Shown here: positions 859-28,854 of the stretch, one piece after another
How positions within the stretch are numbered: the stretch's first letter is position 1
Layout of the letters: every line of letters starts with the position of its first letter
DNA from: a virus
Taxonomy: Duplodnaviria; Heunggongvirae; Uroviricota; Caudoviricetes
Virus record (IMG/VR): IMGVR_UViG_2690316068_000004
Span: 1-38,076 of that record
DNA length: 38,076 nt
Strand: one strand, 5' to 3'
The notes under the pieces: model-generated
What the model saw: the letters and a program-made list of their open reading frames with translations, nothing else
Databases searched by the model: none
What the model was told of the DNA's origin: nothing
Made by a program: the position numbers and the translations under genes

Positions 859-1862
859 CACAAGATCCGAGGACATCATCGTCCGCCAGCCTACAGCAGT
901 CCGGAAAGTCATGGAAGGTCGTTGGGAGGAGGTACGAATTCTATCATGCAAAAAATACGTAAAATCGATAATAGCTGGAAATAATTCAATACATGCACTC
1001 TCGAAAGTGCATCAGCCAACCGTGGCACGTTTTTGCATACAACGAGCCACGGTTCTCTTTACGATTTATAGCTGTATTGGTGAACTATGAGCAATTTTCG
1101 CGTTATATTCCAATCTTTAATCTCTTCACGGAACAAGTTGCATGCATGACTATATCAAGACAACTTATAACTACCAAAACATTTGCTTTGCAAGCAAAAA
1201 CGGGGACCATTGACTCTAAGAAAAATCCGATCTATTGTTAGGATTATTAAAGTTACTTAACAGTATTCCGAAATGAAAATACAAAGCAAGCTGATTGTCT
1301 TATTAAACATTATCATTGCATTTATACTATTTGAGCTTTTAGATCAAAAATTCGGTTTGAGTACATTATTTTAAAGCAAGATAAATAATATCGGGCACTC
1401 TAGTTTTTATAATTAACAATTAAACGCCCATAAAATGTTATTTACGTTTCTTCGCTATTGTAATATCTTAATATAGTGGTTTACGCCACTCTACTTTCAT
1501 CATATTTTGTACGTTTATGTACTCGCCATGAAACTCTTTCATGGCGCTTTCTTATTCTCAATCCAAAATCGTACTCTCTATCCTATTGCAAATCACGCCT
1601 TAACAAACTTATAACACATTTAAGTGATTATTACTAACTTACTCAAAAACAGATATTATTCACAGGTGATGAGTTCTAATGAATTACACTTCGGTGCTGC
1701 TGGCCAATCAACATCAGGTGCAGTTGATGTATCAACGCGGTTCAGCAACACCCGATACTTTTTCCAGACTTCCAGCAACGAAGTTTCTTCCTCCGTTGCG
1801 ATTTCCAGCTCAACAACAGTCTGAACGTACCAGGAACAGCCTCCTTCAGGGCTTGAAGGATA

Positions 1863-4800
1863 TCAATGTTCGCTTCCTGTTAACTGCCGGACAAGTGCAA
1901 CCAGTTCGCTTACCTGATTTTCCAGAGTGGTGATCCGGGTGCCTGCTGTTGCCAGATTTTCACGTAACGTTGTATTTTCCTCTTCCAGCGCGGTAACGCG
2001 ATCATCTGTTTCACGGGCGACCTGAATAAGTAAGCCAGTCACGGCGGCGTAGTCAACATTCAGATAACGTGTTTCTTCACGTAATTCATTGCCGTCAACC
2101 GTTGGTCCCTGCAACTCTTTACCGTAATGAGTGAATGAGCCTACCGCTTCCGGTATTGCCTCCATTGCTTCCTGTGCAATAACACCAGCGTAAGGTAGTC
2201 CGTTTTCCTTAAGTGTGTAGGTGTACCCGTTCATTTTACGGATAGCTTCGGTTGCGTCACTGATAATCTGAATATTGTCTTTCAGCTCGCGGTCTGATAA
2301 CTGATTCAGTGTTGTACAGTTAATAGCACCGTTTACATCAAACAGCTGACCTGACGATGTTTTTTGAGCATAAAACAGATACGCGGCAGACGTTCCAACC
2401 TCAAAAACGTTTTGTCGATCACTTGAACCCCACACCTTGACAGCAAATGATAGTTCTGTATTACCTAAGTTCTGTAAAACAAAACGATTGCCAGTCCCTG
2501 TTTGTTTTGTAAGAGCTAAATCAACAGTTGAGTTAACCTCATCCTTGTTGATAGTGAGCGCCTGCGCTTTAGCCCCGTTAACAGCACCTGTTTTGAGTTG
2601 AACCGCGCCGTCATTACCATTTAGCAGTATCTCAGCTCCGCTAAAGAAATTTTTTAGCGACAGCATCTTACTTACGCCGACTGATGAACCCAACGCCCAC
2701 GCGAGAGAATTACCGGTGCTATCAAACCCACGTACAAAGCAATCCATTTTGCTATAGTCTGACGTGCTTCCAAGGACATCAATCCGCCCTCCGCCAGATT
2801 TTAACGGGTTAGATGTGGTTAATGACCTGACAGCAAGATCGGTGGATGAATTTAGATCGTCTACTGTTAGTAATTTCTTCCATTCCTGCGTCGTTCCGTT
2901 TTCAACTGTTCTTCCCCAAAAACCGGAATTGCGGCCTCCGAACTGCACAGCATAATTTTTACTAAATTGAACATGAATGCCGCCAAGAACCATAGAACCT
3001 GCCGGGCCGTTTGTACTGCCTGCAATTGGTATAAATTTATTAATGTTATCAGTATGCTGCGTGTTCCAGTCTCGTCCTGTTTTTGTAAGCAGTCCTAATG
3101 TCGTGTCGAGCGCTTCGGTTAAAGTAAGGTTTTTAAATTTAACTGCGCTACTTTCGCCAAGACTTAAGTTGTTTCGCGCATCTTCTACTGTTGTCGCACC
3201 TGTACCTCCTTGCCCAACAGCTAATGGCAACCAGCCAGTGCCATTATGACAACCCCACAAACCAGATTTGGAAACCTGTAAGCGTGGTGCGCCTGAAGAA
3301 TACGTAGAATATACGTAAGTTGTTTCTTTTCCCTCTTCAACCCTTTCTGTTGATACATCTCTCTTCCATTCAGACCAGGTACCGCTACCTCCTTCATATA
3401 TTCGTCTATAAGTAATTCCCGGATTATTATAAGGGTAGTACACCTGAACGCAGGAAGAAGCAGTGTTGGCTCTCGTTTGGAGCACTATTAAAGCGCCCGC
3501 CAGACCGATTGGGTAATTTAATTCTTCTGTTGCGTAAGCGCTCGCTGGTTGTTGATAGAAACCAGAATATTCACCGGTAAGGGTGTTTAGGTCAGTATTA
3601 GCAAGACCAGCTTTTTGCTCATACATTACCCGCAAGTTCGCACGTGCTTGCTCGATAGTTCTTCCACCAGTACCGCCCTGGGCTAAACCTAACGGAGACC
3701 ATTGTCCAGAAGAAGAATCATAAACCCCCCAACTCCCGTTAGTATGGATTTCAAAGAAACGATCGTTAGTTGGGCCATATATACGAGTCGTCGATTCGTT
3801 TTGAAATAATCGACTGACTTCATCTTTGCGAGCGTGGCGTGTCCATTGCGGGCCTATACTAGTTAACCAGCGATAGGTGTAAATGGATCTGGTGTTCCAC
3901 CCCTGGAAAATACCTGTATAAGCTGGCGATCCGTCAACCTGACTTATAAAGCCAGTTAAATTACCCTCACCCGATGCAATCGAAGGAAAACCCGTGGCAT
4001 TTTCCATGATGCGCATAAAGCCAATATAACCTGATGGATTTCCTGAGATGTCAGAGCAATCACGCGGTGATGATCCCAAACCGATGTTAGTACCAACAAT
4101 ACCCTGGGCCTGGTTGCGATAATTAAGTGCGTCCGCCGCAGATTTCGCCGCGTTTGTTTCACTGGATTTAGCATTAGTTTCGCTGGCTTTAGCGTTGGTT
4201 TCGCTGCTCTTTGCTGCTGCTTCGCTATTTTTCGCGTTGGTTTCTGATTTTTTGGCTGCTGTCGCGGAGTTTGCTGATGCAGTTTGTGAGTCTGCTGCCG
4301 CCTGTGCGCTGTTATCCGCATTCGTCTCAGACGTTTTTGCGGCCTTCGCGGAATTTCCTGCCGCCGTTGCCGAAGAGGCTGCACTACTGGCGCTCGAGGC
4401 TGCGCTCGTTTCTGATGATTTCGCTGCCTCTTTTGAGGCCGCCGCATCCCGGGCTGAGGTGGCAGCTTCTGACGCTTTCGTGGTCGCGGTGGATGCAGAA
4501 GTGGCTGCAGATTTTTGTGACGCTGCAGCATTCGTTTCTGACGTTTTCGCCGCACCGGCACTGGTAGCCGCCGCGCTTTTTGAGGACTCTGCAGCGGCAG
4601 CACTTTTTGATGCTTCAGTAGCCTTTGTTGATGCCGTTCCTGCGCTGGAAGACGCTGACTGAGCCGACGACGCGGCCTGTCCGGCTGACGTGCTGGCTGC
4701 GCGTGCTGAGTCTGCAGCATCAGTCGCATAGGTTGCCGCCTCACTGGCCGATGTGCTGGCATCGCTGGCTGACTTCTTTGCGGCTGCCGTGTTCTGTGCC

Positions 4801-5159
4801 ACTGCGGACGCGTTACGCGCCACCTCTTCCACCATCAGTTCAAAGCGGCGCAGTGCCTCCGGACGGGCATCATCCTCCGTCATGGCACCGAGAAAATCAT
4901 TCAGCGTACCGGGTCGGGAATCTTCATACACGGTGATGGTCCCGGCATGTGACGGCGGGAATCCTTCCACCAACAGAATAACGCTGTACTGACCGTACTC
5001 AACGTCCATGCTGTAACGCCCGGCTTCATCCGGATTTTCAGATGCCACCGTGTTCACCACCACCGTGGTGCTGTTACGTTTTGCTTTCAGCTGGATTGTG
5101 CAGTTCTGTACCGGTTTACCTGCACCGTCTTTCAGTACACCTGAAATCTTTACTGCCAT
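1863..5159 (-). CDS. stf: Side tail fibre protein Stf, with A/S/T-rich repeat region and C-terminal intramolecular-chaperone-like domain
   Basis: N-terminus MAVKISGVLKDGAGKPVQNCTIQLKAK... matches lambda Stf as I recall it; 1098 aa; no separate tfa ORF downstream. Confidence 0.9.
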   Translation of the reverse strand: MAVKISGVLKDGAGKPVQNCTIQLKAKRNSTTVVVNTVASENPDEAGRYSMDVEYGQYSVILLVEGFPPSHAGTITVYEDSRPGTLNDFLGAMTEDDARPEALRRFELMVEEVARNASAVAQNTAAAKKSASDASTSASEAATYATDAADSARAASTSAGQAASSAQSASSSAGTASTKATEASKSAAAAESSKSAAATSAGAAKTSETNAAASQKSAATSASTATTKASEAATSARDAAASKEAAKSSETSAASSASSAASSATAAGNSAKAAKTSETNADNSAQAAADSQTASANSATAAKKSETNAKNSEAAAKSSETNAKASETNAKSSETNAAKSAADALNYRNQAQGIVGTNIGLGSSPRDCSDISGNPSGYIGFMRIMENATGFPSIASGEGNLTGFISQVDGSPAYTGIFQGWNTRSIYTYRWLTSIGPQWTRHARKDEVSRLFQNESTTRIYGPTNDRFFEIHTNGSWGVYDSSSGQWSPLGLAQGGTGGRTIEQARANLRVMYEQKAGLANTDLNTLTGEYSGFYQQPASAYATEELNYPIGLAGALIVLQTRANTASSCVQVYYPYNNPGITYRRIYEGGSGTWSEWKRDVSTERVEEGKETTYVYSTYSSGAPRLQVSKSGLWGCHNGTGWLPLAVGQGGTGATTVEDARNNLSLGESSAVKFKNLTLTEALDTTLGLLTKTGRDWNTQHTDNINKFIPIAGSTNGPAGSMVLGGIHVQFSKNYAVQFGGRNSGFWGRTVENGTTQEWKKLLTVDDLNSSTDLAVRSLTTSNPLKSGGGRIDVLGSTSDYSKMDCFVRGFDSTGNSLAWALGSSVGVSKMLSLKNFFSGAEILLNGNDGAVQLKTGAVNGAKAQALTINKDEVNSTVDLALTKQTGTGNRFVLQNLGNTELSFAVKVWGSSDRQNVFEVGTSAAYLFYAQKTSSGQLFDVNGAINCTTLNQLSDRELKDNIQIISDATEAIRKMNGYTYTLKENGLPYAGVIAQEAMEAIPEAVGSFTHYGKELQGPTVDGNELREETRYLNVDYAAVTGLLIQVARETDDRVTALEEENTTLRENLATAGTRITTLENQVSELVALVRQLTGSEH

Positions 5160-20373: not shown

Positions 20374-24054
<3,681 letters not shown>

Positions 24055-26358: not shown

Positions 26359-26652
26359 ATGAAAAAAATGTTGTTTTCTGCCGCTCTGGCAATGCTTATT
26401 ACAGGATGTGCTCAACAGACGTTTACTGTTGGAAACAAACCTACAGCAGTAACACCAAAGGAAACCATCACCCATCATTTCTTCGTTTCGGGAATTGGGC
26501 AGAAGAAAACTGTCGATGCAGCAAAAATTTGTGGTGGTGCAGAAAATGTTGTTAAAACAGAAACCCAGCAAACATTCGTAAATGGATTGCTCGGTTTTAT
26601 TACTTTAGGCATTTATACTCCGCTGGAAGCGCGTGTGTATTGCTCACAATAA
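26359..26652 (+). CDS. bor: Bor lipoprotein (serum-resistance moron)
   Basis: MKKMLFSAALAMLITGCAQQTFTV... matches lambda Bor; opposite strand to the lysis genes as in lambda. Confidence 0.9.
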   Translation: MKKMLFSAALAMLITGCAQQTFTVGNKPTAVTPKETITHHFFVSGIGQKKTVDAAKICGGAENVVKTETQQTFVNGLLGFITLGIYTPLEARVYCSQ

Positions 26653-26683: not shown

Positions 26684-27145
26684 CTATCTGCACTGCTCAT
26701 TAATATACTTCTGGGTTCCTTCCAGTTGTTTTTGCATAGTGATCAGCCTCTCTCTGAGGGTGAAATAATCCCGTTCAGCGGTGTCTGCCAGTCGGGGGGA
26801 GGCTGCATTATCCACGCCGGAGGCGGTGGTGGCTTCACGCACTGACTGACAGACTGCTTTGATGTGCAACCGACGACGACCAGCGGCAACATCATCACGT
26901 AGAGCATCATTTTCAGCTTTCGCATCAGCTAACTCCTTCGTGTATTTTGCATCGAGCGCAGCAACATCACGCTGACGCATCTGCATGTCAGTAATTGCCG
27001 CGTTCGCCAGCTTCAGTTCTCTGGCATTTTTGTCGCGCTGGGCTTTGTAGGTAATGGCGTTATCACGATAATGATTAACAGCCCATGACATGCAGACGAT
27101 GATGCAGATGAGCAGAGCGGAGATAATCGCGGCTACTCTTCTCAC
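26684..27145 (-). CDS. Rz: Inner-membrane spanin Rz, GTG start
   Basis: (V)[44 protein letters not shown]... matches lambda Rz; GTG at 27143..27145 preceded by GGGGGA. Confidence 0.85.
26743..26925 (-). CDS. Rz1: Outer-membrane lipoprotein spanin Rz1, embedded in Rz in the +1 frame
   Basis: 60 aa [24 protein letters not shown]...[15 protein letters not shown], lipobox and proline-rich as in lambda Rz1. Confidence 0.85.
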
Positions 27146-27676
27146 TGATCTATCCCCCAACAGGCTAAATGCGCTTTCCTGGTCACGACGAATAACCTGT
27201 CCGTAGCAGTTATTTGAACGTGTGCGGCAATCACGCCCACCGTCCTTAATCCACCAGCGAATCGACTCACAGGCACCTTTACGATCACCGGCATTAAGCC
27301 GCTTATAAAACGTCGACGGGAAACACTTACCGGGGCCAATGTTATAGGGACAAAATGACGCGATACCTGCTTTTTGTGGCTCGGTCAGTGGAACTTTTAT
27401 ATTACGCTCCACCCATGCCAGCGCCTTATCCCGCTCAATGGCGTTAACCTGGGCGCATTTTTCCTTCGACAGTTTCATGCCCGGAATAACAGGTTTACCC
27501 TCCACCACAGTGGCACCCCGGCAAATGGTCCATATGCCGGAACCATCGCGGTATGCCGTTGTGTGGTTACCCTCTTTTTCGTCCAGAAACTGGTCAAGTA
27601 TCTGAGGAGCAGACGCGCCTGCGGCAATCAGCGCCAGAACAGCAGCCGACAGGCCGTATCTGATTTTTACGTTCAT
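27142..27676 (-). pseudogene. R: Phage lysozyme (GH24-type, signal-anchor N-terminus), apparently frameshifted near the 3' end so the ORF reads through into Rz
   Basis: The 330-aa ORF is lysozyme (aa 1-177) plus Rz (aa 178-330) with no stop; the expected C-terminus ...ACWGIDQ and TGA at 27142..27144 lie in the +1 frame; the span is 535 nt, one more than 178 codons. Confidence 0.7.
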
Positions 27677-28698: not shown

Positions 28699-28774
28699 TG
28701 GTGCTGGTTAACGGACTTGAACCGCCACCCATTCGCTTACAAGGCGACTGCTCTACCATTGGAGCTAAACCAGC
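28699..28774 (-). tRNA. tRNA, predicted anticodon UGU (Thr) from hand folding
   Basis: 76 nt folding as a cloverleaf with GCTC/GAGC D-stem, anticodon loop CTTGTAA, T-loop TTCAAGT, encoded CCA; C at position 14 and a G.A pair at the top of the anticodon stem. Confidence 0.6.
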
Positions 28775-28779
28775 ATGTT

Positions 28780-28854
28780 TGGCGGGACAGCGTGGACTCG
28801 AACCACGATAAGAAGGTTAACAGCCTTCCGTAATGACCTTTATACGACTGACCC
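28780..28854 (-). tRNA. tRNA-Asn (anticodon GUU)
   Basis: 75 nt with anticodon arm GAAGG-CTGTTAA-CCTTC, T-arm CGTGG-TTCGAGT-CCACG, encoded CCA; one T.T mismatch in the acceptor stem. Confidence 0.65.

Follow-up and report, generated by a model that had tools for sequence, protein, structure and literature searches.

The locus examined here raises two related questions: what separates a metal transporter operon from the tail genes of a phage, and on which side of the prophage boundary does that operon lie? The stretch of DNA that we analyzed, called the window, comprises positions 1 to 38,076 of the IMG/VR virus record IMGVR_UViG_2690316068_000004. It begins with sitD, the last gene of the sitABCD iron/manganese ATP-binding cassette (ABC) transporter operon (1 to 858, + strand), recognized as an open reading frame (ORF) and annotated by RefSeq as SitD at the identical position in Escherichia coli strain Q5. 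A side tail fibre gene, stf, an ORF of 1098 amino acids (aa) with Pfam phage_tail_N and C-terminal Peptidase_S74 domains, converges on it from the other side (1863 to 5159, − strand), and the 1004-bp gap between the sitD end at 858 and the stf end at 1863 is the subject of this work. We consider it likely that the gap is the tail-proximal end of the b-region of a prophage integrated at icd, and that it is a patchwork of four modules which include a YncL-like accessory gene, or moron, and the stranded 3′ end of a tail-fibre-assembly gene, tfa.

An earlier note on this DNA had described the gap as an AT-rich, non-coding junction of about 1 kb between convergent genes, with no convincing ORF. The coordinates, the convergence, and the AT-richness were correct: the guanine-plus-cytosine (GC) content was 37.3% for 859 to 1862 and 29.4% for 1250 to 1650, relative to 51.7% for the whole window. 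It is also true that no long ORF is present, the longest in the gap having 84 aa and running antisense to the tfa remnant (tfa′) and stf; however, the gap is not devoid of coding sequence, given tfa′ at 1656 to 1862 and a 33-codon ORF at 1273 to 1374. Note that the missing long ORF is uninformative in itself, because AT-rich DNA has frequent stop codons. The same note had suggested a decayed gene in the AT-rich tract; such a gene exists, namely tfa′, but it lies outside that tract.

Four modules between sitD and stf

Module distributions were counted over 5,426 complete E. coli genomes. Module A (859 to 1044) is the 3′ flank that travels with sitD; it was found directly after sitD in 371 genomes, mostly at 90–95% identity over query positions 1–186. 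Module B (1045 to 1093) is a 49-bp linker of separate origin which would represent a recombination joint, its only matches being a b-region variant (L012 4001–4069, 84% identity) and one Shiga toxin (Stx) phage. Module C (1094 to 1642), a conserved AT-rich ‘post-tfa’ block of 30.8% GC, was present in 831 genomes (~15%), at ~940 places in all; a single genome had as many as 4 copies, and plasmids had none. Module D is the tfa 3′ remnant on the − strand (1656 to 1862 as a reading frame, ~1693 to 1862 by homology), and this part of tfa occurred in 3,364 genomes. The complete arrangement, at a query coverage of at least 80%, was found in 20 genomes only. Breakpoints fell at 1044/1045, 1093/1094, and ~1642, and alignments with module C homologues broke at ~1094. 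Other strains combine the same parts in other ways; in strain D3 module A runs almost straight into tfa′, with module C missing between them, and in GF50 and AR_0374 the order is sitD, module A, a major facilitator superfamily (MFS) transporter gene, tfa′, module C, tfa, and stf. These results show that the gap is a patchwork of four independently distributed modules, which past recombination would have joined.

All inspected loci, which lay at the bioA-ybhB, ydfJ, ompN-uspF, and icd sites, had module C directly against the 3′ end of an intact or truncated tfa, and the block was also present in the isolated lambdoid phages ev099, mEp332 (host K-12), and PhiR70_1 (host E. coli C). Because it lies beside tfa at four integration sites and in isolated phages, we regard it as retained phage DNA. 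Two scans of IMG/VR yielded 47 contigs, all with the same two alleles of the block and no third lineage. Among the GTDB species-representative genomes a pattern search for related loci gave 270 pattern matches, of which 0 were confirmed, and an exact 28-nucleotide (nt) pattern from the conserved 3′ element described below gave 0 matches. We propose that module C would be a self-contained AT-rich moron, found in many E. coli lambdoid phages just past the tfa 3′ end and facing the tail genes in convergent orientation.

A 33-codon reading frame in module C

Within module C, positions 1273 to 1374 (+ strand) contain a 33-codon ORF, MKIQSKLIVLLNIIIAFILFELLDQKFGLSTLF, for which we predict a YncL-like single-pass small membrane peptide on the basis of coding-type conservation and a match to YncL. 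The ORF was intact in 56 of 56 complete copies sampled. When ten copies of module C, representing two diverged alleles, were aligned, the variable columns in the ORF numbered 9, 2, and 12 at codon positions 1, 2, and 3, respectively; all other frames were closed across it, and indels occurred on both sides but none inside. Between the two alleles, 18 of the 99 nt of the ORF are different, yet only 5 aa are changed and 28 of the 33 residues are kept; simulations matched for the number and type of substitutions gave a mean of 11.1 aa changes, with a probability of 0.00025 for 5 or fewer, and introduced a stop codon in 44% of the runs. This pattern of change shows what appears to be purifying selection on ORF 1273–1374.

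The only protein family matched by the peptide of the window was NCBIfam YncL (NF000537), with E = 7.5e-5 and 22.5 bits over positions 1–28 of 30; two other alleles matched the same model with E = 1.3e-5 (25.0 bits) and E = 3.7e-5 (23.5 bits). A direct BLASTP comparison with K-12 YncL (MNVSSRTVVLINFFAAVGLFTLISMRFGWFI) gave 39% identity and 64% positives over 28 aa, with E = 2e-7. The YncL model was matched at E ≤ 1 by 0 of 149 fully shuffled peptides and by 0 of 149 shuffles that preserved the polar-hydrophobic-polar layout; the best shuffle match to any family had E = 0.069 for the full shuffles and E = 0.0077 for the layout-preserving ones. One transmembrane helix was predicted in the 33 aa, and the 17-residue Kyte-Doolittle mean peaked at 2.94 for the peptide and at 2.34 for YncL. 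Like YncL (K-12 b4598), the predicted peptide belongs to a size range of 31–33 residues, with a short polar basic N-terminus, one hydrophobic helix, and then an [RK]-F-G motif, and the two conform to a common pattern, M-x-x-x-S-[RK]-x-[IV]-V-L-[IL]-N-x-x-x-A-x-x-L-F-x-L-[IL]-x-x-[RK]-F-G. We conclude from these comparisons that the peptide is probably a diverged relative of YncL and not an equivalog.

The peptide has left few traces elsewhere. It had two entries among ~15 billion predicted proteins, and a phmmer search of 1.84 billion representative proteins found only a near-identical entry and one frameshifted variant, with no wider family visible. There was no match to it in Pfam or PHROGs, no annotation over the ORF or its core among the 40 listed RefSeq rows and 4 phage records, and no occurrence of the peptide string in the literature searched. 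Four other ORFs in the gap, 993–1241, 1476–1637, 1103–1210 (− strand), and 911–1090, were rejected as genes, as they span module boundaries or carry indels in homologues; ORFs 993–1241 and 1476–1637 had no NCBIfam or Pfam match (911–1090 and 1103–1210 were not searched).

Upstream of the ORF a consensus scan identified a σ70 promoter-like site, TTGACT-17 nt-TATTGT (1210 to 1238, + strand), from which transcription would start at ~1243–1246. Its −35 hexamer TTGACT was invariant in 10 of 10 aligned copies, its −10 hexamer was either TATTGT or TATCGT, and the site was also present in mEp332. Downstream of the ORF, a divergent, indel-rich spacer (1375–1475) is followed by a conserved 3′ element (~1476–1546), which starts with a small hairpin, GTGGY-TTAY-GCCAC (1476 to 1489, + strand), with lineage differences in the loops and invariant stems. 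There were 1–6 variable columns per 30 nt across 1466–1555, positions 1506–1532 being biased because they served as search anchor. A terminator scan and RNA folding identified an intrinsic terminator at 1524 to 1556 (+ strand). Its 10-bp stem (CGCCATGAAA/TTTCATGGCG) closes a loop of 3 nt and precedes a U-rich tail; in the common allele the stem measures 11 bp and runs into TTTTTT. The fold of 1478–1558 had an energy of −18.2 kcal/mol (z = −5.5), and 0 of 200 shuffles were equally stable. As the stems in 1476–1546 are invariant, covariation gave no evidence either way regarding the terminator, which would stop the + strand unit ~100 nt before the tfa stop codon. A separate promoter for the 3′ element was considered and rejected, since the candidate −10 differs between the alleles. 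We propose that the 1210–1238 promoter would drive a transcript of ~310 nt, that this transcript would code for a distant YncL relative of 33 residues spanning the inner membrane once, and that the terminator at 1524–1556 would halt transcription before it entered the tail genes in antisense orientation. Judged by what YncL does, such a peptide would lodge in the lysogen's inner membrane, with effects on membrane energetics or stress physiology.

YncL itself is induced by stress and resides in the inner membrane; when produced, this small protein depolarizes the membrane, condenses the nucleoid, and lowers viability (PMC12542507); its degradation in vivo is RseP-dependent, but in vitro cleavage by purified RseP was not reproducibly detected (PMC10470546). 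In addition, yncL is listed as a target of KilS, a small RNA (sRNA) from the Rac prophage kilR transcript, in a study based on RNA interaction by ligation and sequencing (RIL-seq; PMC8175672), and prophage RNAs and YncL-type genes may already be functionally linked in K-12.

Several observations weigh against the assignment of a translated YncL-like gene to module C. The YncL scores of 22.5–25 bits are below the curated cut-off of 35, and K-12 YncL itself scores 68.6 bits; only 11 identities are common to the peptide and YncL. The ATG at 1273 is not preceded by a Shine-Dalgarno sequence (...GTATTCCGAAATG), whereas K-12 yncL has AAGGTGG, and promoter-like sites in the region were no commoner than in shuffled sequence (3 found, 3.3 expected). 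Diversity is low, with essentially two alleles and E. coli as their sole source, so that one allele pair carries most of the weight of the selection test. One public sequence (P0003) contains a frameshifted copy. Finally, conservation is higher in the 3′ element at 1476–1546 than in the ORF, a difference that a gene acting only through its protein would not need.

Alternative readings of the AT-rich tract

One alternative is that the tract is the integration junction of the prophage and holds an attachment site (att) core, with sitABCD on the chromosomal side; the sit genes do lie right beside the prophage's tail end, and att sites are often AT-rich. Comparison with the complete chromosome of strain Q5 decided the matter. 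The junction is 99.9–100% identical to Q5, and the whole window is collinear with it at 99.97–99.98% identity except for one 10.9-kb Q5 insertion at window position 21121–21133. On the sit side, the order in Q5 is bluR, ycgX, ymgL, a 168-bp icd fragment, two acetyltransferase genes and a helix-turn-helix (HTH) gene, sitABCD, the gap, tfa′, stf, lom, and J; at the opposite end, integrase and excisionase genes directly follow an intact icd. The icd 3′ end (~210 bp) plus its terminator forms direct repeats in the same orientation at both ends of the prophage, with 97–98% identity, and the far att copy (icd′) is 5.2–5.4 kb to the left of window base 1, beyond sitABCD. The prophage is lambda-like and integrated in the 3′ end of icd, and this arrangement of the ends is classical for phages that integrate in icd, such as e14. 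Since the icd repeats enclose sitABCD, the operon is inside the prophage, as b-region cargo between the tail fibre and the far att site, which was one of the two placements that the earlier note had offered. The other, an integration junction or att core in the tract, was refuted: attL and attR are marked by the icd 3′ ends, which on the sit side lie outside the window, and the gap has no core sequence repeated at the other end of the prophage. Nothing in 859–1862 is repeated elsewhere in the window beyond chance matches of 11–12 nt, and the AT-rich block is phage DNA, occurring inside prophages at four integration sites and in packaged phage genomes. We regard a junction here as extremely improbable. 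The note had also envisaged that the segment might be conserved core chromosome with the prophage boundary elsewhere; the boundary is indeed elsewhere, but the segment is prophage DNA.

The remaining alternatives accept module C as phage DNA and differ over what it encodes. It could specify a non-coding RNA, either an sRNA or a 3′-derived sRNA comprising the hairpin at 1476–1489, an AU-rich stretch, and the terminator, with the ORF untranslated or secondary. Such a reading would account for the 1476–1546 element being the most conserved part of the block with its lineage differences confined to hairpin loops, for an architecture of hairpin, AU-rich linker, terminator, and U-tail that is typical of Hfq-binding sRNAs, and for the lack of a Shine-Dalgarno sequence. 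We nevertheless think it unlikely, as an RNA-only model leaves the synonymous bias, the freedom from indels, and the YncL match unexplained; there is no conserved promoter directly upstream of 1476, and the invariant stems provide no covariation support. Nor did Rfam assist it: with Rfam 15 the tRNAs alone passed the gathering score in the whole window, only sub-threshold fragments of the IS009 and CssrB families were found in 800–1950, neither within the AT-rich core, and 1094–1642 had no match at a useful E-value. The sRNA that the earlier note had entertained was not shown; the conserved promoter-ORF-terminator unit resembles a small-protein gene, although its highly conserved 3′ end may still have a role as RNA. 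If it is such a gene, its product could be a type I toxin of a toxin-antitoxin system, or part of an abortive-infection module, in which a depolarizing peptide is restrained by an antisense or divergent RNA. The size and hydrophobicity of the peptide (Kyte-Doolittle mean up to 2.9), the ~180 nt of 3′ untranslated sequence in the predicted transcript, the location in a phage accessory region, and the depolarization and reduced viability caused by YncL (PMC12542507) all fit. We found, however, no conserved antisense promoter-terminator pair overlapping the gene and no strong complementarity of at least 18 nt to its 5′ region; the inverted repeats were weak (72–85% over 13–25 nt). The sole − strand promoter-like site (1177 to 1149) faces away from the ORF, and the sequence downstream of it is unconserved in the window; there was also no PHROGs match (the anti-phage defence families of PADLOC were not searched). 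This makes a toxin module, in our judgment, quite improbable. Equally poor odds attach to the notion that module C is neutral debris which spread recently with the tail fibre module, the ORF and its family match being coincidental. The narrow distribution in E. coli only, the 90–95% identity of most copies, the several ORFs of at least 25 aa that arise by chance in AT-rich DNA, and surroundings full of recombination scars and tfa fragments are what debris would predict. Yet two alleles that differ by 18% of nt in the ORF have retained the reading frame with its stop codon and agree at 28 of 33 residues, although the spacer at 1375–1475 is far more diverged and contains indels; the −35 hexamer, start codon, and terminator are kept in both alleles; the block is retained in isolated phages infecting K-12 and E. 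coli C; and the YncL match was reproduced by 0 of 298 shuffles. We therefore retain the reading of module C as a probable YncL-like small-protein gene. A combination with the sRNA idea may be imagined, in which a YncL-like peptide partly depolarizes the lysogen membrane and the 3′ end of the same transcript (1476–1556) is released as a regulatory sRNA; we consider this unlikely. If true, phage exclusion, tolerance, or metabolic silencing would be possible outcomes, and the unit would provide a phage-borne, experimentally tractable paralogue for working out the function of YncL-type proteins.

Flanking modules and comparison with known systems

On the sit side of the gap, positions 909 to 1037 of module A match L001 4244–4371 at 83% identity; these are the two copies of a direct repeat of ~129 bp that flanks the sit operon, and the second copy lies beyond the window, 180 bp upstream of sitA. 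A portion at the right of the repeat (~958–1044) also adjoins tfa remnants in prophages that lack sit (for example, L002 3992–4074), which suggests that the sit cassette may move by homologous recombination at ‘post-tfa’ sequence. Bracketing repeats of ~130 bp could permit gain and loss of the cassette in this manner. Folding of 985–1070 gave two hairpins with a combined energy of −26.3 kcal/mol (z = −4.9; 0 of 200 shuffles equally stable), a small one, ATGCACT-ctcgaa-AGTGCAT (993 to 1012, + strand), and a long one at 1018–1054 that is followed by a U-rich tail (CUCUUUACGAUUUAU; feature 1018 to 1062, + strand). The stem of the long hairpin is kept among variants and survives two double substitutions (TGG/CCA versus CAG/CTG), and it is probably the Rho-independent terminator of the sit operon; as part of the sit cassette, 859–1044 would then terminate sitABCD transcription. 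The sub-threshold CssrB match (RF02799; 1021–1118, − strand; 34.4 bits relative to a gathering score of 76) arose at this same hairpin, since 1021–1056 (− strand) aligns with the 3′ terminal hairpin of that Shigella sRNA family (model positions ~137–180), but most of the model interior is absent, with 101 model positions represented by 18 nt here.

At the other side of the gap, tfa′ (1656 to 1862, − strand) is the C-terminal third of a tail-fibre-assembly gene, matching Pfam Caudo_TAP (PF02413) with E = 4.1e-19 and 69.5 bits at profile positions 87–131 of 131. It has no start codon, begins right after the stf stop codon, and falls short of a full-length Tfa domain; it is a pseudogene fragment, and RefSeq annotates it in Q5 as a pseudogene ‘missing N-terminus’. 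The product of stf has a phage_tail_N domain at residues 1–134 and a Peptidase_S74 domain at residues 955–1006 (E = 2.2e-13), and the pairing of an S74-type stf with tfa′ recurs in other strains. Fibres with the S74 intramolecular chaperone, of the endosialidase type, fold without a separate assembly chaperone. From the domain content we infer that an S74 tip able to chaperone itself took the place of the distal fibre together with the 5′ part of tfa, an exchange that would have stranded 1656–1862; tfa would be truncated because such a tip requires no separate Tfa. In related prophages two successive tfa 3′ remnants in the same orientation are separated by accessory DNA (L002 4123–4217 and 5544–5675; L006 3857–3956 and 4561–4719), and these paired remnants look like layers from repeated replacement of the tail fibre module. 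An end-to-end match to Rfam IS009 (RF02111; 1723–1923, − strand; E = 2.3e-21) reached 91.9 bits, below the gathering score of 117, and coincides with the stf 3′ end and the coding debris of tfa′; this family may describe conserved coding debris and not an RNA gene.

Several further features of the prophage were observed. In isolated phages and attB-lambda prophages an AraC/AppY-like regulator gene runs in the opposite direction to the YncL-like unit, from which it is separated by ~1 kb of unannotated AT-rich DNA (L007 1001–1753, L008 1798–2541, L004 2295–3038); in the window, the sit cassette has taken the place of the regulator side. The two may be linked in their regulation. The 10.9-kb element in Q5 (L058 17506–28392) interrupts a phage portal gene that is uninterrupted in the window. 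It encodes an integrase, HTH, BRO-N, and Icd-like proteins, a primase, a single-stranded DNA-binding protein (SSB), a major capsid protein, a head decoration protein, and a small terminase, a gene set that resembles that of a capsid-forming phage satellite of the phage-inducible chromosomal island (PICI) type; the 13-bp overlap at its joint suggests a target core. The lysis region of the prophage contains iss, for a bor-like serum-survival lipoprotein (26359–26652, + strand). A single 330-aa ORF (26684–27676, − strand) is an apparent fusion of lysozyme and the Rz-like lysis protein that follows it. RefSeq reports at the same locus in Q5 a separate 177-aa lysozyme and a frameshifted ‘lysis protein’, so the 330-aa ORF could be a real fusion or a frameshift difference. 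Genes for tRNA-Thr(TGT) and tRNA-Asn(GTT) are located downstream of the Q antiterminator gene (28699–28854, − strand).

Taken together, the junction is ordinary mosaic prophage DNA with a probable new YncL-like moron, and its effect on current understanding is incremental and its interest modest overall. It confirms sitABCD, a virulence-associated Mn/Fe transporter, as b-region cargo of lambda-like prophages, and it illustrates how the swapping of tail fibres leaves stranded tfa fragments. The small gene would add a coding sequence under purifying selection to ~15% of complete E. coli genomes and three isolated phages, with no annotation of it in the RefSeq and phage records inspected, at a time when the function of YncL (membrane depolarization, nucleoid condensation, ‘metabolic silencing’) is only recently emerging. 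Should the peptide be produced, annotation pipelines would be overlooking a lysogenic-conversion factor, and structure-function studies of small membrane proteins would gain a natural variant.

The arrangement of sit within a prophage is already known in outline. For the ‘PAI sit’ island of Shigella and E. coli, the account of Fisher et al. 2009, as summarized in PMC7545054 (section 28), places sitABCD at several chromosomal locations and ascribes its rearrangement to homologous recombination, which is consistent with the mosaic described here; we saw sitABCD in prophages at icd and at ompN-uspF (the Rac site), always adjoining the tail fibre end. The ~130-bp bracketing repeat and the exact joints with tfa remnants were not found in the sit-island literature searched, a search that did not extend to the original of Fisher et al. 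2009. With respect to YncL, the two genes differ in context and distribution: K-12 yncL lies between patD and ortT, whereas the phage gene lies between sit or b-region DNA and tfa in prophages, is present in only ~15% of E. coli genomes, and is sometimes multicopy. The phage gene also lacks a Shine-Dalgarno sequence, has a different 3′ region, and showed no nucleotide-level similarity to yncL by eye, no alignment having been run. The stf product resembles endosialidase-type fibres in its C-terminal Peptidase_S74 domain, but unlike them carries it on a lambda Stf-type N-terminus, with a useless tfa 3′ fragment behind the gene.

The moron concept itself was reportedly introduced by Juhala, Hendrix and colleagues in 2000. 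Module C has its own terminator, a GC content of 30.8% relative to 49% for stf and 51.7% for the window, and a presence-absence pattern among relatives, being absent from D3 and present in the window and GF50. Like the lambdoid morons lom and bor/iss, it is an accessory block with its own promoter-like site, a factor-independent terminator, and deviant composition that comes and goes between phages, and it is positioned for possible expression independent of late transcription. Unlike them, it is far smaller, with a gene of 33 codons whose expression from the repressed prophage is a prediction, and it is convergent with the late operon instead of embedded in it. The prophage as a whole follows the e14 type of icd integration, which is said to have been described by Hill, Gray and Brody in 1989: the integrase gene lies beside an intact icd with a phage-supplied 3′ end, the displaced icd 3′ fragment is at the other end, and tail fibre and accessory genes are located at the icd′ end, as in e14. 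In contrast to e14, a 15-kb defective element carrying pin and mcrA, the prophage described here is a full-length lambdoid prophage that carries sitABCD.

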